Origin: an uncultured Candidatus Peribacteria bacterium
Lineage (GTDB): Bacteria; Patescibacteriota; Gracilibacteria; UBA1369
Assembly (NCBI GenBank): GCA_965231025.1
Contig: OZ246407.1
Location: 845,512-909,511 of the forward strand
DNA length: 64,000 nucleotides
Reading direction: 5' to 3'
Shown here: piece after piece, positions 39,998 to 55,925 of the stretch
How the letters are laid out: each line of letters starts with the position of its first letter
How positions within the stretch are numbered: the first letter of the stretch is position 1
Notes under the pieces: generated by a model
The model's input: the letters and a program-made list of their open reading frames with translations, nothing else
What the model was told of the DNA's origin: nothing
Database searches by the model: none
Translations under genes and position numbers: made by a program

Positions 39998-40570
39998 ATG
40001 GAAATAAGATCAGCAAAATTCATCAAGAGTATCGTGGCCGCCAATGAGATTTTGGAGGAGGACAAACTCCAGATTGCCTTCATCGGCCGCTCCAACGTAG
40101 GGAAGTCCAGCGTCATCAACTCGCTGACCAAACAGAAAGATCTGGCCAGAACCAGTTCCTTTCCGGGACGCACCCAGCAGATAAACATATTTTTGATCAA
40201 CAAAAACTACTATTTCATCGATCTTCCCGGATACGGGTACGCCAGGCTCTCGGGCAAGGAACGGAAGCAGCTGGCACTGTTGATCAACTGGTACCTGTTC
40301 GAATCGGAATATGAACAGGAAAAAGTCGTCTTCATCATCGACGCGGACACGGGACTTACCGAAAAGGATTTGGATATGCTCAGATGTCTGGAGGACGGAC
40401 AAAAGGATATTGTCGTGGTCGCGAACAAAGTCGACAAGATCAAGAAATCGGAATACGGCAGACAGATGAAAAAAATCCAGGAATCGGTGGGCGGACACAA
40501 AGTGATCCCCTACTCCTCGGAAAAAAGGACCGGAATTAAAGAGCTCCTGGGCGAAATCCTGCGCGGGTAG
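39998..40570 (+). CDS. engB: ribosome-biogenesis GTPase YihA/EngB
   Basis: GRSNVGKSSVIN, PGRTQ, DLPGYGYA and NKVDK motifs. Confidence 0.9.
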   Translation: MEIRSAKFIKSIVAANEILEEDKLQIAFIGRSNVGKSSVINSLTKQKDLARTSSFPGRTQQINIFLINKNYYFIDLPGYGYARLSGKERKQLALLINWYLFESEYEQEKVVFIIDADTGLTEKDLDMLRCLEDGQKDIVVVANKVDKIKKSEYGRQMKKIQESVGGHKVIPYSSEKRTGIKELLGEILRG

Positions 40571-40583
40571 AAGGATGAAATAT

Positions 40584-40657
40584 TGGCTGGGGATGAGGGA
40601 TTCGAACCCCCGATGCCGCCTCCAGAGGGCGGTGCCTTACCACTTGGCGAATCCCCA
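40584..40657 (-). tRNA. tRNA-Gln(CUG), CCA encoded
   Basis: 74-nt cloverleaf on the minus strand: U1-A72 acceptor TGGGGAT/ATCCCCA, anticodon arm CCGCC-CTCTGGA-GGCGG, T-arm GGGGG-TTCGAAT-CCCTC. Confidence 0.9.
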
Positions 40658-40777
40658 ACGTTTCAAGAAGACGGGACAAAACATACACGATATCCCCGAA
40701 AAACTCAAAACAAACTTTACAACAATCAAAATAAATGTAAAATAACCCCTTAAGCCAAATTCTAACCAAACACCCCT

Positions 40778-41296
40778 ATGGCAAGCCCGAAAAAAGGCCC
40801 ACAGCCGTTCCAGGGACCGGAATCCATTGACGCAGCAATGGCACAAGGCATCCGGCTTCTCAACGGTTCACTGGTTTTCAACACCCCAGGAGGACAAAAC
40901 GAAGTGGAAATCGTTGAAGTGGAACCTTATGTACACAGGGAACATGATAAATTCGTTGATCTGTTCAACAAAAAACCACGCCAATCAGGTGAAATGATGG
41001 TTACCTGGATGATGGGAAACCCTGTGGTATTCCTGGTTGTCAGCCCGGAACAGCAGCGCATCGTCCATCTCAAAAAATTCCGCCTGGGAAACAAAGTGAC
41101 GACATTCAAAAGCATTTGCGACACCCTTGGGATCGAAAAAGACCAGATTGACAGGCTCGACGGCCAAAGAATGATGGGGGCCGGCCCGGAAGCATTGGTC
41201 CGCCTCACAGAAAAACCTTCAGCTGAAATCGCCGATATCCGGGTAAAAACCGGAAAGTCGGTCAACAGCCTGGGAATCCTGTCAAAAGGGAAATAA
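40778..41296 (+). CDS. hypothetical protein with weak resemblance to Mpg/AAG 3-methyladenine DNA glycosylases
   Basis: By eye, LLNGSLVF.T.GG...EIVEVEPY..E.D parallels the LLG..LV......G.IVETEAY..D block of Mpg. The protein is short and divergent. It converges on the large operon with a 5-nt gap. Confidence 0.4.
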   Translation: MASPKKGPQPFQGPESIDAAMAQGIRLLNGSLVFNTPGGQNEVEIVEVEPYVHREHDKFVDLFNKKPRQSGEMMVTWMMGNPVVFLVVSPEQQRIVHLKKFRLGNKVTTFKSICDTLGIEKDQIDRLDGQRMMGAGPEALVRLTEKPSAEIADIRVKTGKSVNSLGILSKGK

Positions 41297-41301
41297 ACAT
41301 T

Positions 41302-44300
41302 CTACTTTTTCCCGGTTTCATGGTTGGCAAAATCCAGCATGAATATCTTTGGGAACTCGGAATGTTTGGAGTAGAGCATAAAGGCTATCTTGGTCACATA
41401 AGCCTCCGACTTTCGTTTCTTCTTTTTTCCGGACTTGGGCATGGTCGGATCAAGCTGCTGGTCAGGTTCCCCTTCAAGTTTGATATGAATATTATGCAGC
41501 ATAATGCCCCGGGCAGCCAACTCGACCCTGGTTTCTTCGGTCAAATCCTTAAAACTTCCGCCGTTCTTTTCGTAAATATCCTTGAGAAACGCTTCAGCTT
41601 CCTGTGCCTCGGCATAATAAGCTTCCTGGGCCTTAATGTGTTCAATGTCACGTGAAACCTCAAGTTCCGTCCCGTTGATCCTGAAATTCGTGTGAATATA
41701 CCCCTTGGATTCATTCACCTTGTTCTGGTCAACGGTTTTGCGTTTTCCATTCACAATCTGCGAAGTTCTGGTGAAAACAAGATTGCTTAAATCAAGCCCT
41801 GCAAGGTTCGGTTTTCCGGTTTTTTTGCAAACAAGAGTGTAATTATGGAACGGAGCCTCATCACCCGTATCAACGGCCTCAGCACGGCCGGAGTAGTCCT
41901 CCAGCACTTCAAATCCGAAATGTTTGGAAAGCTGCTCCTGGAAAACCGCGAACTGTTCCGGACTGCAGACGCGGCTTGTCATGGTCAATAGAAGCACACC
42001 GCCCTCCCTCAACACCCTGTTGAATTCAAGAAGCGCTTTCACCCGTTCAACATTTTCCGGATTCTTGAAGCTCTGATCGAGCCTGGTGAACTCAAAAGCA
42101 AGTGCGCAGTTGGCCGCATCAAGCTGGCCATCCTTGAGGAACCTTCTCATGTCGGTCATCGATCCCACGCGGGGAGTAAGCTTCGGTTCAATCATCCTTC
42201 CCCCAAAATCAAGCATGTGCTGATTTAAATCCAAACTCTGCACAGCCCGGTCTTTGCCATCCTGGTCGTACAGCTCAAAACTCCGCTCAAGCACAAGCGG
42301 TCCCGAGGCGATGTCGCCGAAATTCCTGCCGGTAATAATCCCTTTTTCCTCAAGTTCACGGATAAGTCCGACGACAAAACGCGCGTTGTTGCCGCTCATG
42401 GAAGGTTCCCAGTTCTCGCAATAGATTTCGGCGATCATGCGGCCGTACTGGGCAAAAACTTCCTGGATATACTCCACTCCACGGTTCTGCAAGGCACCCA
42501 TGACCATGGCGAGCGTACGTTTGCGGCTCAAGAGATAGTTCATGATGGCCGTTCCCACAAACAACCGTCCTTCCACCACGCGGATAGATTCCGAAATATC
42601 GGTACTATTTAATCTTTCGAGCAGAGCATAATCGTTCTCGGTAATGGAACCGCCGTATTTCAACAGTTCCGTGAGTGAATACTTGTATTCGGCATGTTCA
42701 CGGATGCCCTGGTGAACGGTACCGGACGCCTGGAGAACCGTCACCTCTACATCACGGTTGGAACCCCTCGCAAACCGTTTAACGAGCTGCGCGGTGTCGG
42801 CCTTGTTGAACGTAGGCTCCAGGACAACCGCACGGTGGATATGTTCAAACTCATTCGTCCCTTCCCTCATCGTACCGCTCACGGAAAAAATAATCGTCTT
42901 CCGGTCTTTCCGCTTGGACTTCTGTATGATTTCCTTCCGTTCTTCATCGGTCGTGGAACCGTCATAAACCAGAACATCGACCCTGTCGCCAAAATACTCC
43001 CTAAGCCTTCTGGCGAAGGACGGATCGCGGTACTCCTCATGTTCACGGGTGACACCGTATTTATACATATTCTCCGTGACGACGACCGCGTCATACTCCT
43101 GAAGATACTGTTCGAGTGTCTCAACGGCCTTGTCAAAAAGCGCCGACTTCACTTCCCTGCCCGGAGCGAAGTAAGAAGGGTTCATGATACAAAGCGAAAG
43201 CATGTTGAGCTTCTGCGTTGAATCCAAAGCGTCATTTTCAAAAATGGCCTTGTAGATTTCCCGCTCCTCCTTGTTCAGTTCGTAATCGACATATTCCACA
43301 TATTTCTCCTCCCAATCTTCCGGCTCATCAAGCAGCAGATAAAAATCCAGGAGCACGTTCCTCACCACGAGCGGATCGTTATTCCTGACGGTTGACGCAA
43401 GGGTGCTTAAACTTCCGTACTTCACCCGGTCGGCAATACGAAGCTGGGGAACAATGTCATCGGGGCCGTTGGGGGTAGGATCGCCGGACATCAGCATGAT
43501 GTGGCCATTCTCGTAAAGCCCCGGAATTTCCGTCGCCAGACGGTAAATGGAATCGGTATAGGTGCCGTCCGGATTCCTTGCCCACTGGACTTCATCCACA
43601 GTCATAAAATCAAACTGCTGCGTCTTCAGGAGCTCGACGACATCATCGCGGAGCATGCTGTAAGGGACTATGACGATTTCAGCTTCAAGTTCCCTGGCTT
43701 TCTGTTCATCGGTCATGTTGGCAACAATCCTCCCGATGGACGGAGCACCTTCCGCATCCTTCTTATAATACTTCCTGATCTCATTTGGCAATTCATCGAC
43801 GATCATCGTGGGACAGACGTAAAGCATTTTTTTTGCTCCCACATGCTCTTTGGAGAGAAACGCCGTACCGGTTTTTCCCAAACCCATAAAAAATCCGAGG
43901 AGTTTCCTGTTTCCCGACCGGACAACCTCATCCTGACCGGTCTCTTCATTCTTGCGGATAACGCGGTTCCCGTCCTTCATCTCCTTCATCGCCACGCGCT
44001 GCCGGAGGGAAGGAAAGGTGGCAAACGTCCCATCCTTTTTCTGAATCGCCGAAACCATCCTGCCTGACGGAGCAATAGATAAAACATCTTTCCAGTACGC
44101 GATCAGATCATCGAATATCTCTTTCTGTCTGGGCTTGGCCGGATCGAACTCCTTTCTCAATTCTTTCTCGATCGTCTCAAAACGGGCAACGTATGACTCA
44201 ATCGGACGGCCGTCATATCCGTCTTTTATCAGGTCTTTGTACACACGGTTGCGGTACATGATGAAAACGAGCAGACGAATTTCCGTGAGTTCAAGAAACT

Positions 44301-45081
44301 GATCCGGAGTCCCCACAATGCCTATCGGATTGCTTTGCGGAACCCTGTGCTTGCCGAGGTATTCAGACAAAATACGCACAACCTGTGAAAACCCCATTTT
44401 TACCCTCCCGGATGAAATAAGAAACTGTGCGACGGCATCCGTACCAAACTTTTCGATAAGCGGCTTAAACTCCTGAATGATATGCGCAAGCTCCTTGTCA
44501 CGGACGACGGTATAGCTGATGTCAAAATGTTCCCGCAAATCACGCGGAAGCATATCCCGGAGAACTTCCCAGGACTGTACGCCGGTACATCTGTCCGTCA
44601 CACCGGCCTTCAGGCGTTCAAAAAGACCGCTGCCGTTGGCCTCAAGCTGAATCCATTGCTGGTTGAACTTCCAGTTCTTGTCCACCGGTTTGGGCATCTT
44701 TGCGCGGACCTGGGGAACAAGTTCCGCAAGACACATCGCAAGATCTTTTCTCCTTTCCAAATCCTGCACCAGGCGGAACTCACCGAATGTCTCCCGTTTC
44801 TTTTCCTGAAAAAACAGCTCAATCAGGGATTCCTGGATCTGTTTTCTGGCCTGCGAAACAACTTCAAGGAGGGGGCCTTTCAGTCGATCCAGACGCAGAC
44901 GCTTATCCACAAGAGCGCAAAGCTCGAATACATCTGATACCTCCCCGACGCCAAAATCCGAAAAACGGACATGGAACGAATCGACGACGGTCGTAATTTC
45001 ATCCGCCAGACCGGGATTCCGCTCTGAAGCCGCCTTTGCCTGGTCTTCGACCACTTTCCCGATTTTCGTGAAATCAATCAT
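41302..45081 (-). CDS. 1259-aa fusion protein: unknown N-terminal region, SNF2-family helicase, class I SAM methyltransferase, unknown C-terminal region (operon gene D)
   Basis: Helicase motifs: I GLGKTG (aa 400-405), II DEVQ (496-499), III MSGDP (531-535), V-VI ..SGTMREGTN...LEPTFNKADTAQLVKRFARGS. MTase-like motifs: FGDIASGPL, SLDLN, DAANCALAFEF, LREGGVLLL (aa ~915-1035). Confidence 0.75.
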   Translation of the reverse strand: MIDFTKIGKVVEDQAKAASERNPGLADEITTVVDSFHVRFSDFGVGEVSDVFELCALVDKRLRLDRLKGPLLEVVSQARKQIQESLIELFFQEKKRETFGEFRLVQDLERRKDLAMCLAELVPQVRAKMPKPVDKNWKFNQQWIQLEANGSGLFERLKAGVTDRCTGVQSWEVLRDMLPRDLREHFDISYTVVRDKELAHIIQEFKPLIEKFGTDAVAQFLISSGRVKMGFSQVVRILSEYLGKHRVPQSNPIGIVGTPDQFLELTEIRLLVFIMYRNRVYKDLIKDGYDGRPIESYVARFETIEKELRKEFDPAKPRQKEIFDDLIAYWKDVLSIAPSGRMVSAIQKKDGTFATFPSLRQRVAMKEMKDGNRVIRKNEETGQDEVVRSGNRKLLGFFMGLGKTGTAFLSKEHVGAKKMLYVCPTMIVDELPNEIRKYYKKDAEGAPSIGRIVANMTDEQKARELEAEIVIVPYSMLRDDVVELLKTQQFDFMTVDEVQWARNPDGTYTDSIYRLATEIPGLYENGHIMLMSGDPTPNGPDDIVPQLRIADRVKYGSLSTLASTVRNNDPLVVRNVLLDFYLLLDEPEDWEEKYVEYVDYELNKEEREIYKAIFENDALDSTQKLNMLSLCIMNPSYFAPGREVKSALFDKAVETLEQYLQEYDAVVVTENMYKYGVTREHEEYRDPSFARRLREYFGDRVDVLVYDGSTTDEERKEIIQKSKRKDRKTIIFSVSGTMREGTNEFEHIHRAVVLEPTFNKADTAQLVKRFARGSNRDVEVTVLQASGTVHQGIREHAEYKYSLTELLKYGGSITENDYALLERLNSTDISESIRVVEGRLFVGTAIMNYLLSRKRTLAMVMGALQNRGVEYIQEVFAQYGRMIAEIYCENWEPSMSGNNARFVVGLIRELEEKGIITGRNFGDIASGPLVLERSFELYDQDGKDRAVQSLDLNQHMLDFGGRMIEPKLTPRVGSMTDMRRFLKDGQLDAANCALAFEFTRLDQSFKNPENVERVKALLEFNRVLREGGVLLLTMTSRVCSPEQFAVFQEQLSKHFGFEVLEDYSGRAEAVDTGDEAPFHNYTLVCKKTGKPNLAGLDLSNLVFTRTSQIVNGKRKTVDQNKVNESKGYIHTNFRINGTELEVSRDIEHIKAQEAYYAEAQEAEAFLKDIYEKNGGSFKDLTEETRVELAARGIMLHNIHIKLEGEPDQQLDPTMPKSGKKKKRKSEAYVTKIAFMLYSKHSEFPKIFMLDFANHETGKK

Positions 45082-47890
45082 AATTCAGTGAACTAATAAG
45101 AACATCGACTTGTGCAATAAATTCCTTCCGTTTCGCCATGAGCTGGTCAAGACGAGTCTTGACTGCCGTGCTGTCCCGCTGGAGCTTCTGAAAAGGTTCA
45201 ACCTCGTGGCAGAGATCATCGGTCTCTTGACCCAGCCTGAGAATGAGAGCCTTCATGTTTTCAGCCGTTGCCTGAAGCGTTTCGGCCTCAGAAACCAAAG
45301 GCTCCAAAACCGTTTCGTCCGGTTCCTCAGCGTACAGCAGAGCTCTGATCTTCATTTTCACGACCTCAAGCCTCCGGGTACCGGATTCAACACTTTCCCG
45401 CAGACTCGAACACTCTACTGTTTTGCTTCGCAACACTTCTTTTCTCCCGTCCAAAGCTTCCAAAATAACGGCGTATTCGGCCAATTTTTCGGTGCACGAC
45501 GCAATTTTCTGATCAAGGGTTTTGAGAACAAAAGCGAACTTGTCGATCTCCGGAGTGGATTCGTGCACCTCAACTCTTTTGTTCGGAGCTTCCTGCATAA
45601 GTTCGGCAAAATCCTCAGGCGTCAGCTTCAAACTGATAAACCCTCGCATATCCTCTTCTTCACCGCTGTCATCCGACTTTCTTTTCGCCTGTGTCACCTC
45701 ATAATTCGCACGGACCTTCTCCAGAAAAGGAAGTACCTGGAACTCCACAACGTCAATCGGACATGCCACCCTCCCTTTTTCAAGATCAACCGTGCCGAGA
45801 ATACTGACATACAACTCAACCATGTCATATAAAAAACCTTTTCTTCGCCGCTTCACGAACTGCACCTCGTCGGCCCACTGGAGAACATTCTTGATGCGTC
45901 CACCCATAAAGCTCAAACGCTCTTCCACAACCATCAACTCCTTTGCCTTCTCCTCCCTTTCCCTGGCAACGAGCTTTTCTTCAAGGCAGGCGGTGATGAG
46001 GGGATAAAAATCACTTTCCTTGCGGACAGGATATCCCCCGTGCAAACTGCCGTTGATATTCTGCGCCCATTGCCCGACTTTCCCCTGGGCAACGAACTCT
46101 TTAAGGTGACCGGCCGCATCAAGGCCTTTTTGGAATGGCACCTGATCCAGATAACGCTTGAGCAACATTACTTCCTGCGGGTAAAGAGGTCCGTCGAAAT
46201 CTTCACGGTGCCGTTCCCCCAGCATGGCCGCGTAGACCATTCCGGTCTCATCGTTCTCACAAGCCCCTTCCGTCCCTCCCACAGATTTCCCGTCATGCAA
46301 TTGGGCGACAAGACTGCCGTAATCCAGATTCAACTGACGGAAATCAAAAGAATCCGCTTCACCAAAATAGACGGCGAAATCCTCACAGGTGCTCACCGAT
46401 TGAGCAAGTTCATCCGTCAACCCGCGTTCAAACTGCCAAACCTGTTCGGTAAAATACCGCTTAAGTCTGCGCGTATTTCCAACCATTCCATGAAGTTTTG
46501 CGAAATACCGCTGAATGGCATGTCTCAACAAGACACCAACCTCCGCCATGGCCTCAACTTCCCGTTTATTGATACATATGGACATTGAATTTGGGCCGGC
46601 ATGATCGTCTCTGTTGTTCAGGAAGAACTTTTCCAGAAGTTTTTTCAAAATCCCCGCATGCACGTCGGCGGCAAATGACCTCAAAATATCGCCATGGACA
46701 TCGGCAAGTTTGACTCCGCTCAATTCCGGATCCAAAACAGGAGGAATCGGACTTCCTTTGCCGGCACATCGGTCTCCAAGGAAAGCTTCGTCCCTGACCG
46801 GGAGACCTCCGTGGATAACGTCATTAAGCATCGCCGCAATTTCGCCGTTCTCCAAACCGTTCTTCAGAGCGTGCTTCTTAAGGGCATGTTCGGCCGGAGA
46901 ACAATCCACCACGGCTTCCTTGTTTCCGTCCGGGTCCACGAGCGGATATTTATGTTTCTTGGGCATCACAAGCGCCACGGGAGTATGAATATCGTATTCA
47001 TATCCCTTTTGATACTGTTGAAAAACATCGACATCGAGAGCACCGATAACCGCAATCAAAGATTGAAGACTTTCATGAAGAACATCAACAAGTCTTTCAG
47101 CTTCGCGATGCGTAGAAAAAGCGGCCTGTATCCTGGTTTCTGTCACTCCCTTCAACAAACGACCCCAGTAATTCCTGAAAGAATCGAAACCGCATCCCCC
47201 TTTCGCCTCATAAGAATGCCTCATGAAAAGCTTCAGGTTGTCATTTTCAGCGGCCACCAGCTGGAAAAAATGGACGATAATATCCAGCAGATCTTTTGAA
47301 ATAATTTCCGTATCAGCACCGGACTGACCGATGAATCTCATATTGCGCAACCTTGCCGCGACATCCCGCCCCCAATTGGTTTCGAGAATTACAATCTGTT
47401 CAAGATAAAAACTTTCCACATCGTCAGGACAGCCTTCAAAAAGCTTATACATGTCCTGCGAAATTTCACCGACCTCCTCATCGTCTTCCGGCAATTCCTC
47501 CTCCGCGGGACGATTCTGGAAATTTGCGTTTCTTCTGACCTCGGCGCAAACATCCGTAGTATAGGTGTTCACAAGTACGGAAAGAGGCTTTTCAAGTGAA
47601 ATAAACGGAGTCGAAATGAGCGACTTGCGCAAACCCCTGAGACCGGCCCGAACTTCATCGGAAACGGCCAGCAGATCCTCATGGTAAAGCACCCGTTCTC
47701 CGGGAATGCTGTCAAGAACGCCCAAAACCGCGTCACGAACCTCAATTAATTTACTGGCGATATCCCTTTCAAACTCACCACGGTCACGCCTGCCATTCGC
47801 TTCAAAAAGACCCTTCACCTTGTCGTATCCTGCGTGAATCTTGGTTCGTAACACATTCTTGCTGACTCCGTCCATCTTGTTCATAGTCAC
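45074..47890 (-). CDS. 938-aa protein of unknown function, helical with C-terminal coiled coil (operon gene C)
   Basis: Long ORF whose stop overlaps the start of gene D by 8 nt. GTG start at 47890, or ATG at 47884. No signal peptide, TM segment or catalytic motif recognised. Confidence 0.7.
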   Translation of the reverse strand: MTMNKMDGVSKNVLRTKIHAGYDKVKGLFEANGRRDRGEFERDIASKLIEVRDAVLGVLDSIPGERVLYHEDLLAVSDEVRAGLRGLRKSLISTPFISLEKPLSVLVNTYTTDVCAEVRRNANFQNRPAEEELPEDDEEVGEISQDMYKLFEGCPDDVESFYLEQIVILETNWGRDVAARLRNMRFIGQSGADTEIISKDLLDIIVHFFQLVAAENDNLKLFMRHSYEAKGGCGFDSFRNYWGRLLKGVTETRIQAAFSTHREAERLVDVLHESLQSLIAVIGALDVDVFQQYQKGYEYDIHTPVALVMPKKHKYPLVDPDGNKEAVVDCSPAEHALKKHALKNGLENGEIAAMLNDVIHGGLPVRDEAFLGDRCAGKGSPIPPVLDPELSGVKLADVHGDILRSFAADVHAGILKKLLEKFFLNNRDDHAGPNSMSICINKREVEAMAEVGVLLRHAIQRYFAKLHGMVGNTRRLKRYFTEQVWQFERGLTDELAQSVSTCEDFAVYFGEADSFDFRQLNLDYGSLVAQLHDGKSVGGTEGACENDETGMVYAAMLGERHREDFDGPLYPQEVMLLKRYLDQVPFQKGLDAAGHLKEFVAQGKVGQWAQNINGSLHGGYPVRKESDFYPLITACLEEKLVAREREEKAKELMVVEERLSFMGGRIKNVLQWADEVQFVKRRRKGFLYDMVELYVSILGTVDLEKGRVACPIDVVEFQVLPFLEKVRANYEVTQAKRKSDDSGEEEDMRGFISLKLTPEDFAELMQEAPNKRVEVHESTPEIDKFAFVLKTLDQKIASCTEKLAEYAVILEALDGRKEVLRSKTVECSSLRESVESGTRRLEVVKMKIRALLYAEEPDETVLEPLVSEAETLQATAENMKALILRLGQETDDLCHEVEPFQKLQRDSTAVKTRLDQLMAKRKEFIAQVDVLISSLNYD

Positions 47891-47901
47891 GTTTGGTTAG
47901 G

Positions 47902-49824
47902 TCAATCGTTCGGCTTCGCCGGGACATCCTCCCGGGGCGATATAATATCCTGGGTTCTTGACCGTTCGACCAGATCGGCAAGGGATTCATCAAATATTCT
48001 CTGTTTTTCAGCCTCAAGTTTTTCCCTCGTCTCACGTTCAGTGCGTTCTTTTTCAATAAGCTGGTCCAAACGGTCAGCCTCCACCTGCGTGGCTGCGACC
48101 TCCGCTTCAAGAGCAACTTTTTTCCCCTGAAGGATATCCGCCTCCTGCTTTTTTGAAGCCATCTGGGCGCCCAAATTCTGCAACATGACATAATCGTCGC
48201 TATCCATTGCCGCCGTGGATTTGGTGCGTAACATACTGAGATCGGCCCTGAGAGAAACGATTTGGGCACCAACCTCCGCAAGTTCACGGCGTTTTCCAAC
48301 AACCCGTTGAAGCAGCGTCACAAATCGGGCCTGAGATTCTTCCCTTTGCGCTTTGGCCATTTCATCCTCAGCAGGCTGCTGAAAATCCCCCCTCACTTCA
48401 TCGATCAGGCTTGGCAAATCACTGTCTCCGCCGCTGAGTGTACGCTCCAGATTGCGAAAAATCGCCACGTGCGCGTCAAAAATCTTTTGCTGGTTTGGCT
48501 TGGCGGATACGGCGTCGCGTCCGTTAATGGTAACGACCTCTACCGACTGCATGAAATCCTCGATTTTCAAAAGTGAAAACATGACCAGCTTGCGATCATA
48601 ACAGGCCTGGTCCGCGAGAATCTTCCTGGCAGCCTCGATCTCATGGCGGACATACGAATTCCTCTGCGTTTTGGGCAGCCCGGCAATCCATTCCAGAGCC
48701 TGCAAAATGCGCCTGTCGATTTCGAGGTTCAGCTCCCCATTCCTGATATCCACCGTTACATCCAAATCATCCAGTACCGGCATGGGCACGGAATCCGGAA
48801 CTTCATTATCTTCATTCCGGACAATCTTTGCTTCTTCGTGAACTTCAACCCCGGAAGAACAAACCGCCTGTGCGGACCTTCGGTATTCATGGAACGGTCC
48901 TCCATAAACACTGGAAAAATCCGCAAACTGCCGGGTGAAATGATCTCTCGCCCACTTATTACCCGAACAACTATAATCCGGCTTATAATCAACAAATTCA
49001 TCGACAGACATGTTTTGAAAGACCTCAATGAGCCTTGCAGTGACGGTAAAAAGATAACCTTTCGTTTTGGAATCCAGTTTGTCGTTACCAAGGGTATCCC
49101 GCTGCCGCCTCAAAACGGCCAAAACAAAATCCCGTAACTGTTCAAAACTCATCCTATAACCGCGATCGCGTGCACCATCGACAAAACGATCAAGCTTGAG
49201 GAGCCAAGGTACGAAATGCTTAACCTCCTCGTTATACCTTTCAATTTTTCTTGATACATCTTTTGGAAATACCTGACGGTCAAGCAAATCAGTACCTACC
49301 ACTCCTCCATCGAGTGAAATATGACTCGCAATGCCGATCTCGACGGCATGCTTGTAGAGGAAAAAAGTCACGATATTTCCCAGTTGCAATTTGATCAAAG
49401 TCGAAGACGCCTCCCTCTTGTTCCTGTCCTTTTCTTCGATATACAAATCCCGTCCCCCCGTTGAAAAATCATAACCCTCCGCTAGAGATTTCTGTATTTT
49501 ACGTTTGTGGGCACCGACAAGTCCGAGCGCAAAATCTTTAAGTTCCCGGGGCACGCCATCCAGATTTTCCACCGATGAGGCGAACTCCGCGAACTTCGCC
49601 GCCACAGGTTTACAAAGCGATTCCAGGTCTTCCGGGAAATCAATGGAAAACGCAAATGTGCCGGATAATATTGCGGCGAGATCCCGTCGTAAAGCCTGAA
49701 CCCTGTCGCGGACGGCCTGGACGCCTTCATAATCCACGGCAAGCTCAGCATTGACCTCCTGGACGGAAGACTCAAACATGCCCATGAGCGTATCTATTCC
49801 CAATTGTCGGGGTTTCTGTGTCAT
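47902..49824 (-). CDS. 640-aa protein of unknown function, paralogue of genes A and C, C-terminal coiled coil (operon gene B)
   Basis: ATGA start/stop overlap with gene A. Shares the block ILQALEWIAGLPKTQRNSYVRHEIEAARKIL..KLVMFSLLKIEDF with gene A. Confidence 0.7.
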   Translation of the reverse strand: MTQKPRQLGIDTLMGMFESSVQEVNAELAVDYEGVQAVRDRVQALRRDLAAILSGTFAFSIDFPEDLESLCKPVAAKFAEFASSVENLDGVPRELKDFALGLVGAHKRKIQKSLAEGYDFSTGGRDLYIEEKDRNKREASSTLIKLQLGNIVTFFLYKHAVEIGIASHISLDGGVVGTDLLDRQVFPKDVSRKIERYNEEVKHFVPWLLKLDRFVDGARDRGYRMSFEQLRDFVLAVLRRQRDTLGNDKLDSKTKGYLFTVTARLIEVFQNMSVDEFVDYKPDYSCSGNKWARDHFTRQFADFSSVYGGPFHEYRRSAQAVCSSGVEVHEEAKIVRNEDNEVPDSVPMPVLDDLDVTVDIRNGELNLEIDRRILQALEWIAGLPKTQRNSYVRHEIEAARKILADQACYDRKLVMFSLLKIEDFMQSVEVVTINGRDAVSAKPNQQKIFDAHVAIFRNLERTLSGGDSDLPSLIDEVRGDFQQPAEDEMAKAQREESQARFVTLLQRVVGKRRELAEVGAQIVSLRADLSMLRTKSTAAMDSDDYVMLQNLGAQMASKKQEADILQGKKVALEAEVAATQVEADRLDQLIEKERTERETREKLEAEKQRIFDESLADLVERSRTQDIISPREDVPAKPND

Positions 49825-52427
49825 GCTTTTGATGAATGAAATTGGGCCGACTCTTGATAGGTATGCAGAAGCAAAACCCTCACATCACGGACAAATTGAC
49901 GCCTTCTCTGGTGCACCGCCTCAAGCCGGGATTTTACGGAAGCCATCTGCCCGGCCGTTTTTCTCCGCAAGTCGCGTGATTCCACCAAAGCTCCCAGCTC
50001 CTTTTGAATCTCATCGATGCGGGCGTCAATTTCCCCGATGCGGGCTTTCAGTTTCCTGGACTCGGAAATATGAACTCTCATCTCCGTAAAATGATCCTCC
50101 TTCAGCAAAGAAGGGAGTGATTCGAACAAAGCGGACCTCCGACCGTCAGCCAAAGCCTTTTCCGCAAATAAACCGGCACGTTCGCTTTCAAACGACAGTA
50201 TTGCCTGTTCAGCGCCGTCAACCCCATCGCCAAAATCGGATTCAAGCCTGAAATACTCTTCCTCAAGACCTGAAATGACAGCCTGAAATTCCCGCAGCCT
50301 TTCCTGCACGATTCTTGCGGAAGCGCTTCTGGCAGGATTTTCAAAACTCAATTCCCTGAAAATCCTGACGTACAGGGACATCAGCTCATCACTGTCCAGA
50401 CTCGTGCTGAACGCCTTGGTCGTTTCCTCAAAATCAATTTGGTCACGGAATGCCTCCAGTTTGAGGAGTGCGTAAGTGACGAGACTTTTGGGATGCTCCT
50501 CCGGGGCAGAAAGTACCTGGATCAATGCGGCGATTTCATGCCTTATATAAGTCTTTTTTTGCATTTCCGGGAACTGTCCGAACCATTCAACCACCGATTG
50601 AATACGCGTCTCCCTACCGGCAATCACGGGATCCGGCAAAACCGGGGCCTCAACGGGCCCCGACTCGCCGCCGGTAACGTCTTCATTGGCATCTTCGGTG
50701 ACCGCGTCGCCGGTAACGTCTTCGGACGCCACCTCGCAGGTTACGCTTTCGGCCGCCTGCACCGGCTCTTCCTCAGGTTGAGCCGCCGGCTTTTCCCCAA
50801 CTGCTTTTGCATCCAAAACATCCTTCCATAATGCGGCCTTGCAGGGAGTCGGATCAAATGCATACATCGACATGCGGAGGTTGACGGCCTGCAAAACACC
50901 CGGAGCCATACCCTCAAACCGCATTGCTCCAAAATCCTCAATCGGCATGTGTGCAATTCGTGCAATAACTTTCTCAAGAAGTTCCTGCTTTTTTTGAGTA
51001 TGGCCGCATAATTTCGATTTCGAGTTCGACTGAACGTATGTGGACAATCGTGACCCTAAAAACTCAAGGACTCTATCCCTCAACTGACCCAACCCAAACC
51101 CTTCGGCGGCCCCCTGGTTCAACAAAGGTTTTACCTGCTCATCAACGATCTGCAACGTTTTCCATAGAAACGTATCGACAGTCTTGAAATCAACGATCAG
51201 AGTGGCATCATTGGCATGAAGGTCATTACATCTTGTGCAGCAGTACAACCCCTGCTGTAGTGCCTCGGTAAAAAAAGGTTCATAGATCAAAAGCGCGAGC
51301 CGGTTGGAAAACTCATCCGGACTCTCCCTGTAAGCATCAGGAATCGGCTGAAAAGGTGAAGGTGGAGCTTCCGGTAAAGGGGAAACTTCCGGTGAAGCCG
51401 CTGGGGGCTCGCATTCAACGACCGGGACATCCGCGTCTGTCCCCGGTACCTGGACCTGCGGAACTCCAAGAGCGGATACCGCGGAATCCGGATCGCATTC
51501 ATCAACCTCTGCGCAAAGATTCCGGAGCTCATGTCTTTTCATCCCATCAAGAACTTTTTTTCTGTAAAAAGCCCTGGTATTCCCGAAAATCGCTGAAAAC
51601 TTCGGATGAATCCCGGCCTCCAAAAAATCACTTTCAGCCAGATGTTCCGTGTCCGTAAAAACCCCGTTGGCAAAATCTCTCAGTTCAGCAAGCGCCGGGC
51701 CTTTTATTCCGTAACACATCTTCAAATTCCCGCGCCTTTTGTTTAAAAAATTACGGAACGTGCGAACCAGATCTGAAAACCGGAAAGGTTTCTTCAAATA
51801 CTGCATGTGCTTCACATCTTCGATAATTTTATTCAACGCATCGTCAGCGAGCTGCTGCATGACATTGAGAAGGTCCTGATCGGAGGTACTCTTCGTATGA
51901 ATTCTCTCGCATCTCCCGCACAAATATCCACCTTTGTCCTCATAAACGGGAGACAAAAGCTTCGAAAAATAGATTTGAAACTGAAGCAACGCGGGTTCCA
52001 GGTTATACATGTAATCATCTCCCAACTCCAACTTCTGCTCCCCCATCTCCAAATCATACTTCTCACCAATCATTGCTTTCACCTTGCGGCGTTCGCTGAA
52101 AATAGCCCCGGTGAGATCGGTAACAACCATCGGAGAAAGCCCATACTTGGCCGCCGCTTCCTCCATGCTCGTTTTAACCGTGGCACCGATTAACTCACAG
52201 ACATGATCTAATTCAGACTGCCTCCCGATAGCCCCCGGAACCGCTTGACCTATTGAAGCGATAACATCGTCTCTTATTCGAGCCAAAGTCTTAACAATAA
52301 GCAGACTTTCCTCAGATACATCATAAGAACCGGCAATTTCGCTGTATGAAGCAGCGACGGCCTTGGTCAGGTAGTTCTGGCTTAAAATAGTCTGTTTTTT
52401 TGCCTCAGCACGCACAATTACGTACAA
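49821..52427 (-). CDS. 868-aa protein of unknown function with an internal duplication and C-terminal coiled coil (operon gene A)
   Basis: The first possible start is the TTG at 52427 (alternative GTG at 52415). Two repeat modules carry C(G/T)RC..(I/L)H. Acidic/Pro-rich linkers. Contains the block IQSVVEWFGQFPEMQKKTYIRHEIAALIQVL. Confidence 0.7.
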   Translation of the reverse strand: MYVIVRAEAKKQTILSQNYLTKAVAASYSEIAGSYDVSEESLLIVKTLARIRDDVIASIGQAVPGAIGRQSELDHVCELIGATVKTSMEEAAAKYGLSPMVVTDLTGAIFSERRKVKAMIGEKYDLEMGEQKLELGDDYMYNLEPALLQFQIYFSKLLSPVYEDKGGYLCGRCERIHTKSTSDQDLLNVMQQLADDALNKIIEDVKHMQYLKKPFRFSDLVRTFRNFLNKRRGNLKMCYGIKGPALAELRDFANGVFTDTEHLAESDFLEAGIHPKFSAIFGNTRAFYRKKVLDGMKRHELRNLCAEVDECDPDSAVSALGVPQVQVPGTDADVPVVECEPPAASPEVSPLPEAPPSPFQPIPDAYRESPDEFSNRLALLIYEPFFTEALQQGLYCCTRCNDLHANDATLIVDFKTVDTFLWKTLQIVDEQVKPLLNQGAAEGFGLGQLRDRVLEFLGSRLSTYVQSNSKSKLCGHTQKKQELLEKVIARIAHMPIEDFGAMRFEGMAPGVLQAVNLRMSMYAFDPTPCKAALWKDVLDAKAVGEKPAAQPEEEPVQAAESVTCEVASEDVTGDAVTEDANEDVTGGESGPVEAPVLPDPVIAGRETRIQSVVEWFGQFPEMQKKTYIRHEIAALIQVLSAPEEHPKSLVTYALLKLEAFRDQIDFEETTKAFSTSLDSDELMSLYVRIFRELSFENPARSASARIVQERLREFQAVISGLEEEYFRLESDFGDGVDGAEQAILSFESERAGLFAEKALADGRRSALFESLPSLLKEDHFTEMRVHISESRKLKARIGEIDARIDEIQKELGALVESRDLRRKTAGQMASVKSRLEAVHQRRRQFVRDVRVLLLHTYQESAQFHSSKA

Positions 52428-52438
52428 AAAAGGAGGTT

Positions 52439-52466
52439 ATTATAAATAAAAATACGTATTTGTCAA
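52439..52466 (-). promoter_or_regulatory. near-consensus sigma70 promoter of the four-gene operon
   Basis: Minus strand TTGACA (52461-52466), 16-nt spacer, TATAAT (52439-52444). The -10 ends 11 nt upstream of the first possible start codon. Confidence 0.55.
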
Positions 52467-52546
52467 TAGGCAGTTGGAAACCACAAAAACTGCCAAAAAG
52501 CATGACAAAACCATGAAAACCTTATCAGATCGCGCCATACTGAAAA

Positions 52547-53137
52547 CTACATCACCAAGCCCGCTTTTTGGGCACAATCCAGAATAACCTTTTCGACGTC
52601 TCCGACACACAGGGGAATCTTGTTTTCCAGACTCCAAACCTGGTAGTCAAAAAGGTCGGCCGCCGCCATCTCGCGCTGGGCGCTTTCCATGCGCCGCTGC
52701 AGCTCCTCTTCGGGAAGTTTCCCCCGCTTTGCAATGCGTTCAAGCAGTTTCTCGGGACTTTCCGCTTTCAAAAAGATCGTCACCAGATTTTCCCTGGGCA
52801 TCACCTTCCGGATCGAATGAAACCCCTGGACATCAACTTCCCTCACCACGATTTTACCGGCCTCCAGCGAATCGATGATCGGCTTCTTCAACGTCCCGTA
52901 ATAGTCCTTCTTATGGACCTGGGCCCATTCCAGAAAATTGCCCTTATCGATTTCGGACTTAAACCTCTGCTCACTGATGAAGTGGTACACCTCACCGTCC
53001 TTTTCCCCCGGCCGGATAGCTCGCGTCGTATGGGAAATCGGAAAAACAAACCGGGGATATTTTTCCTTGAGGGCGCGGATAACCGTCCCTTTTCCAACGC
53101 CCGACGGACCTGAAATAATAAAGAGAATTCCTTTCAT
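52547..53137 (-). CDS. gmk: guanylate kinase
   Basis: ATG at 53137 (MKGILFIISGPSGVGKGTV). The track's 41-aa N-terminal extension is rejected. Has TTR..R.GE.DG..Y.F. Confidence 0.92.
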   Translation of the reverse strand: MKGILFIISGPSGVGKGTVIRALKEKYPRFVFPISHTTRAIRPGEKDGEVYHFISEQRFKSEIDKGNFLEWAQVHKKDYYGTLKKPIIDSLEAGKIVVREVDVQGFHSIRKVMPRENLVTIFLKAESPEKLLERIAKRGKLPEEELQRRMESAQREMAAADLFDYQVWSLENKIPLCVGDVEKVILDCAQKAGLVM

Positions 53138-53259
53138 GGCTCCGCCTGCGAGGCTATTGACTAAAAAGTAAGAATATTTTATAATACTATAATGCTCTGA
53201 AGCACCAAAACCAAGTATAGCAAAAAAAAACTCATCCGTCGCAACCCCTTCTAAGAGCA

Positions 53260-53288
53260 TTGAAGAAAACGGGAAAAAATGCTAGAAT
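53260..53288 (+). promoter_or_regulatory. sigma70-type promoter facing the noncoding interval
   Basis: TTGAAG (53260-53265), 17-nt spacer, TAGAAT (53283-53288). Confidence 0.45.
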
Positions 53289-53294
53289 AATGAG

Positions 53295-53819
53295 ATAACA
53301 AAAAGCAAAAAATGTTCCTTGAAAACTAAAACCAACGTCGAAAAGTAGTCAGACACAAGCTATCCGGTGGAAAATGGCTTCTGCCTCCCTACTTTTCGAT
53401 GCAGTCGGCGCGACAACCGACTCACCTAAAGTAGCCTCCGTCACTACCGCCCGCCGAATATTCTTTTGCGGGCCGACGGCAGGAACTTACCCCGAGCACA
53501 CAGTGCTCAACAAAACAAAAACACACTCAACCAAAAAGTTTACTTCTCCTCGCTTCGGCCGGGAGAGAAACACAAAAAACCAAAATACAAATGGACGGCG
53601 GTGTAACCAGCGTCCTAAAATAATGCACCAAAGAACGGTAGGGAGCAAAGTTTTTCAGCATTCATGCTGAAAGACGGTAACAGGGCACATTTGTTCGCGG
53701 CCTTGTTGCCAACCGCTCCTTGATCTTCTTTATCCTCAGCGCTTCGAAAACAAGCAGCTGATAGGGTAAGATCAGAGAGCTATAAAAGGACCAGCATCTT
53801 TACGAAGCTGGTCCTTTTT
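53295..53819 (+). ncRNA. candidate large structured ncRNA (~0.5 kb), unclassified
   Basis: At least 9 hairpins or helices lie between the promoter and an intrinsic terminator. Helices at 53676-53685/53701-53710 and 53715-53734/53760-53780 contain G-U pairs that work only in the plus sense. A/C-rich single-stranded linkers. There is no credible ORF and no downstream plus-strand gene. Confidence 0.45.
53784..53819. terminator. bidirectional intrinsic terminator (candidate ncRNA on plus strand, ssb on minus strand)
   Basis: aaaaggaccagc (53784-53795) pairs with gctggtcctttt (53807-53818). T-runs follow on both strands. Confidence 0.7.
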
Positions 53820-54671: not shown

Positions 54672-55925
54672 ATGACAACCTACGCATTTATTCTTGGCCG
54701 GAAACACCTGCTTTCCATAGCAGAACTCTGCACCGTACTGGGCTCCGTAAAGGGATCGAAAATCATCGACCTCGTCCCGGAAGCCCTCATCGCGGAACTC
54801 CCGCAGCCCCTCGCCAATCCGCAAGAGAGCCTGAACCGTCTTGGCGGAACCATCAGCATCGCAGAAATTTTCAGCCAGTCAAAAAAAGATAAGTCTGCCA
54901 TCGTCCCGGCAGTCGGCGAATTTCTGACGACAAAATTCCAGGGAAGACCGAACAAGCTCAATTACGGAATAAGCCTCTCCAGTTTTACAGAAAGACATGA
55001 AGAAATTTTAAAAAGAACCTTAATTTCCCTTAAAAAAGAACTGGTCAAAGCGGAAATTAAATCCCGTTTCATCAACAAGAACTTCAAAAATCCCGAAAGC
55101 GCCGCCATACACGGAGAAGAACTCCTCAAAGACGGTTCCCACATCACTGTCATTCAGGGCAATAACCACTATTTCTACGGTGAAACGAAAGCGCTCCAGG
55201 ACATTGAAAAATACAGCCAGCGCGACTATCAACGGCCGGGCCGGGACCCCCACCTGGGCATGCTCCCTCCAAAACTGGCCCAGATGATGATCAACCTCGC
55301 CGGAAAAACCCCGCTGGAAGAAAAAATCCCGGACAACAGCCTGCTCTATGACCCGTTCACCGGCATTGGGACGGTACTCACCGAAGGACTGCTCCTGGGA
55401 TTCAACGCGCTCGGTTCCGACATCAACGAACAAGCACTCCAAAAAGCCCACAATAACATCGACTGGATGATAAGGAAATACAACATCCTCACCCCCCAGC
55501 CCCGGCTCTTCATCAAAGACGCGACCCAGCTCACCAAAAAAGAGATACCCCAGTCCCCCGCCCTCATCGTGACTGAATCGTACCTTGGACCTCCGGTAAG
55601 CCAGTTCCCCGTCCCGGAAAACATCAGAAAAACCTTCAGCAGTATCCACGAAACGCTGTTCAGATTTTTCAGAACGGTCAAGCCGCTCATAGACAAAGAG
55701 ACCCCCGTCGTCATCAGTTTCCTGGCCTACAAACGCAAGGACCGGTACTTCTTCCTGGAAGACCTGGTTGAAGAAATTGCGCAAATGGGATACCGGGCAG
55801 AACCGCTCATTCCCCATGAAATCAGCAAAAAATACGGCTTGAAGGTCTACGAGCGGCTGGGACTCATCTATGACCGTCCGGACCAGATCGTCTGCCGCGA
55901 GATATGGAAGTTCGTCAAAACATAA
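54672..55925 (+). CDS. putative RNA methyltransferase (UPF0020/Trm11-like, THUMP-like N-terminus)
   Basis: Class I MTase motif LLYDPFTGIGTVLTEG..LG....GSDI followed by IVTESYLGPP, in place of the D/NPPY-type motif IV. Confidence 0.55.
   Translation: MTTYAFILGRKHLLSIAELCTVLGSVKGSKIIDLVPEALIAELPQPLANPQESLNRLGGTISIAEIFSQSKKDKSAIVPAVGEFLTTKFQGRPNKLNYGISLSSFTERHEEILKRTLISLKKELVKAEIKSRFINKNFKNPESAAIHGEELLKDGSHITVIQGNNHYFYGETKALQDIEKYSQRDYQRPGRDPHLGMLPPKLAQMMINLAGKTPLEEKIPDNSLLYDPFTGIGTVLTEGLLLGFNALGSDINEQALQKAHNNIDWMIRKYNILTPQPRLFIKDATQLTKKEIPQSPALIVTESYLGPPVSQFPVPENIRKTFSSIHETLFRFFRTVKPLIDKETPVVISFLAYKRKDRYFFLEDLVEEIAQMGYRAEPLIPHEISKKYGLKVYERLGLIYDRPDQIVCREIWKFVKT

Follow-up and report, generated by a model that had tools for sequence, protein, structure and literature searches.

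A Patescibacteria gene module in which fast-diverging partner genes accompany a gene for a Snf2 ATPase-methyltransferase fusion protein

What might a bacterium with a streamlined genome do with four large, tightly packed genes, of which only the last codes for recognizable enzymatic domains? The question is raised by genes A, B, C and D on the minus strand of a 64,000-nucleotide (nt) stretch of contig OZ246407.1 from an uncultured Candidatus Peribacteria bacterium, in the following called the window (positions 1-64000), and by a small fifth gene, E, which converges on D and lies outside the coordinates covered by the initial annotation. That annotation, made from the DNA sequence, had described A-D as an operon for three paralogous giant coiled-coil proteins and a helicase-methyltransferase fusion, and as a candidate for an undescribed system. 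Gene order, conservation, paralogy, domain content and an asymmetry of evolutionary rates now define the locus as a module in which one or more rapidly diverging "partner" genes (A, B and C in the window) accompany D and E. Our interpretation, to which we assign a probability of somewhat less than 0.4, is that its products form a multi-protein machine for adaptor-guided, ATP-driven nucleic-acid methylation, which would be restricted to this lineage and inherited with the chromosome; complex formation, the substrate, the role of E and the biological purpose are the parts of this interpretation that we infer.

Conservation of partner, D and E as a unit

A collection of 5.8 billion proteins contained 20 full-length homologues of D (29-73% identity), one of them named "helicase-related protein [Patescibacteria group bacterium]". 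Pattern scans with the D alignment yielded 11 loci of GTDB species and 10 metagenome loci (about 20 distinct loci); a scan using D alone gave no confirmed locus. Every named locus record is a metagenome-assembled genome of Peribacteria, Peregrinibacteria, Gracilibacteria or Patescibacteria. In all loci with sequence available on the upstream side, the gene immediately before D is a large co-directional open reading frame (ORF) of 720-1409 amino acids (aa), frequently with a 4-8 nt overlap at the junction, and none of these preceding ORFs has a Pfam domain. In 13 loci, a homologue of E adjoins D on its 3' side. In 11 of these, the two genes are arranged tail-to-tail with gaps of -4 to +40 bp, while in loci L004 and L010 E is co-directional with D and immediately downstream of it. 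E is the third conserved component of the module.

The closest relative of the window, L002 (D 73% identical), shows the complete A-B-C-D-E arrangement downstream of gmk and ssb, and it is the only place outside the window where the four-gene array A-D was found. In L016 (D 40% identical), three co-directional ORFs of >484 (cut by the contig end), 640 and 819 aa lie upstream of D; the N-terminal module typical of the partners (see below) occurs in the 819-aa ORF and, marginally, in the 640-aa ORF. Apart from the window, L002 and L016, most loci have a single partner gene. The conserved unit therefore consists of the partner or partners, D and E, rather than of a four-gene operon. Conservation as a unit, on which the initial annotation had made its proposal depend, holds for the linkage of partner, D and E, but for the four-gene array only in L002. 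A and B are lineage-specific extra copies of the partner gene, which has been triplicated in the lineage of the window. No further copies of the partner, D or E families were found within the window. In L022 (4865-8613), two ORFs of 749 and 500 aa together make up the D homologue, which may reflect a frameshift, an error in sequencing or decay to a pseudogene.

Proteins A, B and C are true paralogues that have a helical N-terminal module of about 130 aa and a middle domain of about 100 aa in common. BLASTP aligned the roughly 100-aa middle domains of A and B (E value 5e-11) and gave a weak match between A and C that begins at the same motif (E value 1e-3); between B and C, BLAST found no link. 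Protein C matched U5, U14 and U9, which are D-adjacent proteins of other loci (BLAST E values of 4e-10 to 2e-4), and a hidden Markov model (HMM) of the A/B middle domain detected this domain in the D-adjacent proteins U5, U14, U9 and U7 (E values of 1e-7 to 6e-3), where it sits about 250 aa from the C-terminus. Since relatives from other loci thus link them, the relationship of A, B and C is solid, and the view that all three are paralogous, with a weaker copy in C, is borne out. In a curated alignment, the pattern RI..h..W ... L.KLE ... D..L is common to C and its L002 ortholog C2. The N-terminal 130 aa or so of the partners align throughout and include a near-invariant Cys in an "ED(L)xxLCxxV" helix. 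Leave-one-out HMMs of this module, built without the query and without the ortholog of the query, recovered A (8e-8), B (9e-7) and C (3e-4), and reached E values of <= 1e-3 for 17 of the 21 partner members, at their N-termini. Protein C is the D-adjacent partner, and the same slot directly upstream of D is held by a partner gene in every related locus.

In A, B and C, the C-terminal 150-250 aa contain few Pro and Gly residues, are 40-54% charged and show a hydrophobic periodicity of 3.5 residues; together with weak matches to coiled-coil regions of SMC, PspA and SpiroCoCo (E values of 1e-3 to 6e-3), this composition and periodicity are consistent with coiled coils. The earlier designation as "giant coiled-coil proteins" fits the tails and is overstated for the remainder of the proteins, which in A also includes Pro-rich and acidic linkers preceding the charged helical tail. 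Transmembrane-like segments are absent from all four proteins A-D (maximum Kyte-Doolittle mean over 19 residues of 1.5 in A-C), for which reason secreted or membrane proteins were rejected as a reading, and neither a signal peptide nor another recognizable secretion signal was found in A-C; hydropathy and library searches thus agree with the initial statement that A-C lack signal peptides, transmembrane segments and a recognizable catalytic motif. Beyond coiled-coil noise, none of the three could be assigned to a family in Pfam, NCBIfam, PADLOC or PHROG. Among the 5.8 billion proteins, A and a 21-sequence partner profile retrieved only self matches in a word-indexed search, in which the profile run was ineffective, probably due to coiled-coil words. 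An exhaustive phmmer search of 1.84 billion cluster representatives with C retrieved C itself and one relative of 40% identity. Comparison of the partner middle domain with PDB profiles gave noise or marginal matches only, and self-BLAST did not reveal internal repeats in A-C.

Two motif pairs were noted in individual partners. Protein A contains two CxxCxxxH motifs, spotted by eye and by regular expression (aa 170-177, CGRCERIH; aa 397-404, CTRCNDLH), and both recur at corresponding positions in A2, the L002 ortholog of 33% identity (CDKCTKIH, CDHCRTLH), while B, C and the other partners lack them. The pair suggests a duplication inside A that is peculiar to this protein, and the motifs may form metal-binding knuckles. 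A GG(L/Y)PVR motif occurs twice in C (aa 361 and 618), each time preceded by N...(I/L)HGG, and is also present in C2, U14 and U17; the central, variable part of the D-adjacent partners may thus contain a repeat.

The members of the module differ strongly in their rates of divergence (Table 1). Whereas the partners of the window and of L002 have retained similar lengths (868/869 aa for A, 640/616 aa for B, 938/941 aa for C), their sequences diverge far faster than the products of the surrounding genes, yet the genes have been kept and duplicated in a streamlined genome. Within each paralogue, the middle domain is the part most conserved in comparison with the L002 ortholog, with identity reaching 74% in C.

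The positions, lengths and junctions of the four co-directional ORFs agree exactly with those given in the initial annotation. A and B overlap by 4 nt, which must read ATGA because B opens with ATG, B and C are separated by 11 nt, and C and D overlap by 8 nt. In independent gene calls on the 1.49-Mb source contig, A is 864 aa and C is 936 aa long, so that GTG 52415 and ATG 47884 are probably the true starts. The A-D proteins were found again in 23-34 assemblies. The previously proposed promoter upstream of A matches the sigma-70 consensus at 12 of 12 positions, and this site (52466-52439, minus strand) is the sole 12/12 match in a scan of about 13 kb (window positions 40500-53600). The location of the array between gmk and a small convergent gene beside tRNA-Gln was likewise confirmed. 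The small gene is E, and from its 5-bp distance to D it follows that the transcripts of E and D must overlap or terminate inside each other.

Table 1. Features of the locus and its surroundings in the window, with identity of the gene products to those of the closest relative, L002
Feature	Position (nt)	Strand	Extent	Identity to L002	Remarks
tRNA-Gln	40584-40657				Flank beyond gene E
Gene E	40778-41296	+	172 aa	81%	Convergent on D, 5 bp between ORF ends
Gene D	41302-45081	-	1259 aa	73%	ATG start; same length in independent gene calls
D, C-terminal alpha/beta tail	41302-41814	-	aa ~1090-1259		Invariant H1130, F1133
D, class I (Rossmann) S-adenosylmethionine (SAM) methyltransferase	41815-42399	-	aa ~895-1089		
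D, Snf2-type ATPase core	42667-43914	-	aa ~390-805		
D, N-terminal all-alpha domain	43927-45081	-	aa 1-385		AlphaFold2 (AF2) mean predicted local distance difference test (pLDDT) score 81.9
Gene C	45074-47890	-	938 aa	39%	Longest ORF, GTG start; called gene 936 aa, ATG 47884
C, middle domain	45611-45907	-	aa ~662-760		Best-conserved part versus C2; helical tail follows
C, N-terminal common module	47477-47872	-	aa 7-138		
Gene B	47902-49824	-	640 aa	29%	ATG start; same length in independent gene calls
B, common middle domain	48430-48750	-	aa 359-465		Charged helical tail follows
B, N-terminal common module	49432-49818	-	aa 3-131		
Gene A	49821-52427	-	868 aa	33%	Longest ORF, TTG start; called gene 864 aa, GTG 52415
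A, common middle domain	50328-50639	-	aa ~597-700		
A, N-terminal common module	52014-52406	-	aa 8-138		
Promoter-like site	52439-52466	-	TTGACA-16 nt-TATAAT		12/12 sigma-70 consensus; between gmk stop and A start
gmk	52547-53260	-		87%	Upstream flank of A
ssb				81%	
DNA methylase beside ssb	54672-55925	+	417 aa	82%	N6_N4_Mtase type

Domain content of D and relationships of E

Both enzymatic modules that had been ascribed to D were detected above the cut-offs of the respective Pfam models, SNF2-rel_dom (PF00176) with 32.8 bits (cut-off 24.9) and Methyltransf_11 with 21.8 bits (cut-off 21.2); Helicase_C remained slightly under its cut-off (20.2 versus 23.5 bits). A profile of the 20 D homologues matched SMARCA5, a Sulfolobus Rad54-like protein, CHD1L and ISWI over both lobes of the ATPase with E values of 1e-13 to 1e-9, and the helicase core of D matched phrog_62, "DNA helicase", at 4e-32. 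The ATPase motifs are intact: G400, G402, K403, D496, E497, Q765, R769 and R772, which belong to Walker A (GxGKT), DE(V)H/Q and motif VI (QxxxRxxR), are invariant in the 20 sequences, and T404 is conserved in at least 90% of them.

The methyltransferase domain gave a match of the Methyltransf_11/25/31 type in 14 of 15 D homologues (best E value 8e-10). Its motif I reads D-x-A-C/S-G-P, and residues D923, G927, P928 and D951 are invariant. The AF2 model of aa 800-1259 (mean pLDDT 79) contains the expected seven-stranded alpha/beta sandwich region, and among its 587 Foldseek matches at E <= 1e-3 those listed are class I methyltransferases. The top match is the methyltransferase domain of nucleomethylin/Rrp8 (2zfu; E value 1.8e-9, target-normalised TM-score 0.72), followed by Bud23/WBSCR22 (4qtt, 4qtu and 6g4w; E values of about 1e-7), Trm9 and many small-molecule methyltransferases. 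A DNA amino-methyltransferase (N6 of adenine or N4 of cytosine) was considered and rejected, because motif IV, (D/N/S)PP(Y/F), is missing from the domain, which reads "NCALA" after strand 4 (consensus VNCALAxxYT), and because the N6_Mtase and N6_N4_Mtase families had no match among the 15 D homologues. A canonical DNA amino- or C5-methyltransferase is unlikely for D.

The model of the N-terminal domain of D found no fold match in Foldseek searches (best E values of 1.7 in the PDB and 1.2 in BFVD), nor did the domain match a PDB sequence profile. Its first 60-100 aa or so weakly resemble the partner N-module, including a conserved "SDxFxLCxxxD" motif; hhalign aligned the two over 35 columns around this motif with a probability of 42% and an E value of 2.7e-4. 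When the HMM of the partner N-module was run against 559 locus ORFs, the top non-member matches were N-termini of D proteins (6.5e-4 and 0.095). A short N-terminal module common to all four proteins (about 35-80 residues) is therefore plausible, and the earlier statement that all four N-termini are related stands for A-C over about 130 aa and may extend to D over 35-80 residues or so. At the other end of D, the tail carries a basic patch, KKKKRK (aa 1219-1224). Patches like it are found in the three homologues nearest to D, and more distant homologues lack them; the patch could serve nucleic-acid binding or localisation.

Protein E could not be assigned to a family in Pfam, NCBIfam, PADLOC or PHROGs. 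Its similarity to AAG/MPG, the 3-methyladenine DNA glycosylase, is below threshold, the window protein scoring 11 bits with PF02245 (cut-off 27; E value 0.26) and another E member giving an E value of 0.082 with TIGR00567. An hhalign comparison of E with a human AAG sequence entered by hand covered 86 columns with a probability of 36% and an E value of 3.7e-4. The window protein reads IVEVEPY where AAG has IVETEAY, and the position equivalent to the catalytic Glu, E125 of AAG, is occupied by E, K, C, T, S, Q or V across the E family. That E is an active AAG/MPG glycosylase is not supported, given the sub-threshold HMM scores and the lack of conservation of the catalytic Glu; a resemblance to the AAG fold is possible. 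Residues 83-145 or thereabouts also gave weak matches to PDB profiles of SUMO2/3 (E values of 0.12-0.7), and hhalign aligned E with a SUMO-like beta-grasp domain, a target picked post hoc, with a probability of 49% and an E value of 1.7e-4. A C-terminal GG is absent from E. The AAG/MPG and SUMO-like hints are weak and partly compete with each other. Judged by sequence profiles, which matched no solved structure, the partner, the N-terminal domain of D and E represent three new protein families.

Genomic context and possible functions

If the locus encodes the machine proposed above, its core would consist of a fast-evolving, all-helical partner with a coiled-coil-like tail, the translationally coupled enzyme D, and the small protein E. 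The partners would self-associate via their C-terminal helical tails, dock on D through the common N-terminal helical module, and act as interchangeable adaptor or target-recognition subunits. The Snf2 ATPase of D would move along a nucleic-acid duplex, most probably of DNA, and the Rrp8/Bud23-like domain would methylate a base or a bound protein with a chemistry other than that of N6-methyladenine (m6A), N4-methylcytosine (m4C) or 5-methylcytosine (m5C) formation, while E would read or process the product. As to the purpose of such a machine, a role in genetic conflict or surveillance, with the partners as rapidly diversifying sensors, appears slightly more likely than a housekeeping role; this is the weakest step of the explanation. 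The rate asymmetry, the variation in partner copy number and the combination of Snf2 and methyltransferase domains favour the former role, whereas the context, the synteny, the class of the methyltransferase and the lineage restriction favour the latter.

The genes around the module are of an ordinary kind and differ among lineages. In the window, ssb, engB and recQ are located in the vicinity in addition to gmk, and across the loci gmk, ssb, recQ, engB, PGK, RuvX, L9, IleRS, RelA/SpoT, HisF and MgtE occur as neighbours, as do riboflavin synthase and surface proteins with SLH and PKD domains. GC content is 0.49-0.51 at A-D, the same as in the surroundings. GC skew is negative in nearly all 2-kb bins of the window, with the cumulative skew dropping steadily to -3.2, and the entire window therefore lies on one replichore, without a composition break at A-D. 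At some of the other loci, genes for very large surface-type proteins or for secretion-related ones are found nearby. In L003 (1-6819), it stands beside two proteins with an AF_1625_C domain, of at least 1147 aa (the gene runs off the locus end) and 1381 aa; in L012 (6599-13841), proteins with pilin features of type IV secretion systems (T4SS) and PKD repeats (1605 and 800 aa) are encoded immediately downstream of D, which is shorter there (1096 aa); and in L004, a VirD4/TraG-like coupling protein is encoded two genes downstream.

Several points weigh against an adaptor-guided methylation machine acting in genetic conflict. The interaction of A-C with D and E is a prediction from genes and sequences, and the similarity between the N-termini of the partners and of D is marginal (hhalign probability 42%). 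The ranking of class I methyltransferase folds is shallow (1.8e-9 versus 8.5e-9 and so on), and the substrate therefore cannot be read from the fold. The module lacks a nuclease or any other effector domain, an unusual composition if it were a defence system. Genes for integrases, transposases, restriction enzymes, restriction-modification or other defence functions are not adjacent to it at the inspected loci, and the neighbourhoods are of the housekeeping type and syntenic with the closest relative, L002. Confinement to one lineage together with absence from the phage and plasmid collections searched fits a vertically inherited cellular function as well as it fits defence, and the fast evolution of the partners could mean weak constraint on helical scaffolds instead of an arms race. 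As regards the comparison with defence systems drawn in the initial annotation, housekeeping contexts and restriction to one lineage of the candidate phyla radiation (CPR) are unlike a typical mobile defence island.

Part of this evidence would suit a housekeeping machine of the CPR lineage, either a nucleoid or transcription remodeller resembling RapA or eukaryotic Snf2 proteins, or a factor for ribosome biogenesis or RNA modification that methylates rRNA with its Rrp8/Bud23-like domain, with A-C as scaffolds that tolerate drift. Such a machine, for which the nucleoid had already been named as a possible target in the initial annotation, is possible and slightly less likely than the adaptor-guided one. 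It would account for the position of the module among genes such as those listed above and for the synteny with L002, for a promoter of the constitutive type, for the near-housekeeping rates at which D and E evolve, for a methyltransferase that is nearest in fold to the rRNA base enzymes Rrp8/nucleomethylin and Bud23 and not to a DNA family, for the restriction to a single lineage off mobile elements, and for the retention of about 11 kb in a streamlined genome (contig of about 1.5 Mb). Identities of 29-39% for the partners as against 81-87% for the flanking genes, however, would be extreme for a core structural protein, and partner copy number varies between 1 and 3 among lineages. The presence of about 20 D clusters in 5.8 billion proteins and of loci in 11 GTDB species, the latter found with an insensitive pattern scan, suggests that the module is not universal, and the usual substrate of Snf2 motors is duplex DNA rather than rRNA.

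Members of this CPR group are regarded as episymbionts, and A-C, possibly with D and E, might be delivered into the host as effectors that manipulate its nucleic acids or chromatin; their rapid evolution would then reflect a conflict between host and symbiont. The extreme speed at which A-C diverge, their expansion by duplication, the KKKKRK patch in the D tail of the closest four homologues, and the coupling protein and T4SS-pilin/PKD proteins downstream of the module in L004 and L012 would be in line with this explanation. Yet secretion-related neighbours occur at these two loci only, searches for signal peptides, transmembrane segments and recognizable secretion signals found none, D and E are conserved like cytoplasmic enzymes, and the basic patch could equally bind nucleic acid. 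Host-directed effectors are thus improbable.

For the adaptor-guided machine, a more specific version can be formulated. Because the methyltransferase of D is Rrp8/Bud23-like, as suggested by weak fold and sequence hints, D may mark ring nitrogens of purines, giving products of the 7-methylguanine (m7G), 1-methyladenine (m1A) or 3-methyladenine (m3A) type, with A-C choosing the targets and E reading or excising the marked base. E may in this case be an AAG-like binder of alkylated purines that has lost the catalytic residue in most lineages. We consider this version speculative and unlikely in its details. If true, such a mark-then-process system would represent a new logic of immunity or a primitive chromatin-like system in CPR bacteria.

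The locus deserves attention under either functional assignment. That tiny genomes of CPR bacteria (Patescibacteria) keep 8-11 kb for a module without known counterpart implies an important function. With a conserved enzyme and near-saturated, repeatedly duplicated obligate partners, the module is a test case for the retargeting of a nucleic-acid motor by adaptors, and a further feature that makes it a good one is that E stays attached to D on the 3' side whichever way it is oriented. If it serves defence, it would add a new type of immunity from a phylum mostly without CRISPR; if it serves housekeeping, it would point to lineage-specific nucleoid or RNA biology in uncultivated episymbionts.

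Two further features of the window were recorded. The DNA methylase gene listed in Table 1 lies between ssb and a DUF1003 gene and has no obvious restriction-enzyme partner; with its housekeeping-like conservation in L002, its product is possibly an orphan methylase. At 56590-57187 (plus strand), a tRNA gene is apparently split in the anticodon loop by a group I intron of about 0.5 kb with an ORF for an HNH homing endonuclease. The 5' half (approximately 56594-56630) reads TCCCCTG-TA-GCTCAGTGGTAGAGC-A-ACCGG-CT... and the 3' half (approximately 57135-57187) reads ...CCGGT..ACTGGTTCGAGCCCAGT-CGGGGGA-GCCA; the Rfam model Intron_gpI matched positions 56881-57129 with 62.8 bits, and the intron ORF (56648-56992, 114 aa) contains ...CQLCGY...LEFHH...CANCHREVENG. 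The split tRNA was not called by ARAGORN, and its anticodon is possibly UGU.

Comparison with known systems

The initial annotation had pointed to a resemblance of the locus to DISARM class 1 and Druantia, while stating that its gene content fitted no known system. That the locus is a divergent member of DISARM class 1, Druantia, MADS, BREX or Dpd, or an ordinary SNF2-methyltransferase module of a prophage, plasmid or integrative and conjugative element (ICE), would be in line with weak matches of the D family to system-specific models and with the match of the helicase core to phrog_62. With the proteins of the window, PADLOC matched D to mad2 only (7.8e-5, in the Rossmann core) and gave nothing below an E value of 0.007 for A-C. 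Across the 20 D homologues, mad2 was matched by 9 (best E value 8e-12), DpdE by 7 and DrmD by 4 (2e-8 to 4e-5), and the BrxHII and ZorD models also found matches within the family. All of these matches are confined to generic Snf2 helicase or Rossmann methyltransferase cores, and those of the partner family to LmuB, JetC and PbeC are coiled-coil noise. DrmA, DrmB and DrmC, DruA to DruE, mad6 to mad8, and PglZ/BrxC are all absent, and we regard membership of the locus in one of these systems as highly improbable.

Like DISARM class 1, the locus combines a Snf2-family ATPase, a SAM methyltransferase and large proteins in one operon, and a few D homologues match DrmD weakly. However, helicase and methyltransferase are fused here in a single polypeptide, and the D protein of the window has no DrmD match at E <= 1e-3. 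DrmMI is an N6-adenine methyltransferase, whereas the domain in D is of the Methyltransf_11, Rrp8/Bud23-like kind and lacks (D/N/S)PP(Y/F). DISARM was rejected since A-D gave no match to DrmA, DrmB (DUF1998), DrmC (PLD) or DrmMI, and the flanks are gmk, ssb, E and tRNA-Gln. Druantia likewise has one operon for large domainless proteins and a very large helicase, but the helicase encoded here is of the Snf2 and not of the DruE (DUF1998) type, and a methyltransferase domain and the small protein E are additional features of the module. Druantia was rejected as well, as DruE and DruA/B/D were not matched and the sole match was that of DruC to the coiled-coil tail of C (aa 785-918; E value 0.077). 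The suggested resemblance to these two systems therefore did not hold at the level of membership, with the defining genes absent and a methyltransferase that is not of the DNA amino type. As for MADS, mad2 was the only mad model matched, and mad6, mad7 and mad8, which are mandatory in the detection model of its authors (10.1101/2023.03.30.534895), are absent. BREX was rejected for the absence of PglZ/BrxC.

A polyvalent-protein module of a prophage or ICE had been named in the initial annotation as an explanation that would remove the novelty of the locus. Polyvalent proteins of the DarB type of phage P1, which we take to combine a SNF2 helicase and a DNA methyltransferase in one giant polypeptide, resemble D in this respect, and the core of D gave its best match with phrog_62; they differ in domain order and methyltransferase class, and the genes studied here are chromosomal and syntenic among housekeeping genes. 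A tblastn search of 50,697 phage and 72,556 plasmid records with D returned generic relatives of the Snf2 core only, namely 1 phage and 2 plasmid records in which unrelated SNF2 genes covered 13-35% of D, all within the helicase core, at 22-27% identity. Neither full-length relatives nor relatives of the methyltransferase region were found in the phage and plasmid collections, and neither an integrase nor other mobile-element genes lie near any of the loci; searches and neighbourhoods thus lent no support to a phage, plasmid or ICE origin, and this candidate was rejected.

Among cellular proteins, RapA/HepA is a bacterial Snf2 ATPase that, like D, is chromosomal, stands in a housekeeping context and has a non-catalytic N-terminal region. 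The alignment is limited, however, to some 90 residues of ATPase lobe 1, with about 22 bits; RapA has no methyltransferase, coupled partner gene or E, and the N-terminal domain of D has another, all-alpha fold. The rRNA base methyltransferases Rrp8/nucleomethylin and Bud23 (WBSCR22) are the best structural matches and have the Methyltransf_11-like class I fold in common with D, but sequence identity is 16-20% and many small-molecule methyltransferases score nearly as high. These enzymes are stand-alone or Trm112-bound and eukaryotic or archaeal, and we know of none that is fused to a Snf2 motor. Lamassu LmuB and Wadjet JetC resemble the partners as long helical or coiled-coil proteins accompanying a conserved enzymatic partner, and their coiled-coil segments gave marginal matches to the partner family at the level of composition (E values of 7e-4 to 8e-2); the partners described here differ in having no ABC-ATPase head domains.

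As no match in the family libraries, PADLOC included, identifies A-C and no fold match identifies the N-terminal domain of D, the earlier view that the gene content fits no known system is upheld. The module corresponds to no known kind, either in gene content or in protein families, its non-membership following from the absence of the defining companion genes, and the likeness to DISARM and Druantia is superficial. What distinguishes the locus is the joining of a Snf2 motor and a class I methyltransferase of a non-DNA type behind a new helical domain, an architecture which to our knowledge is described here for the first time.

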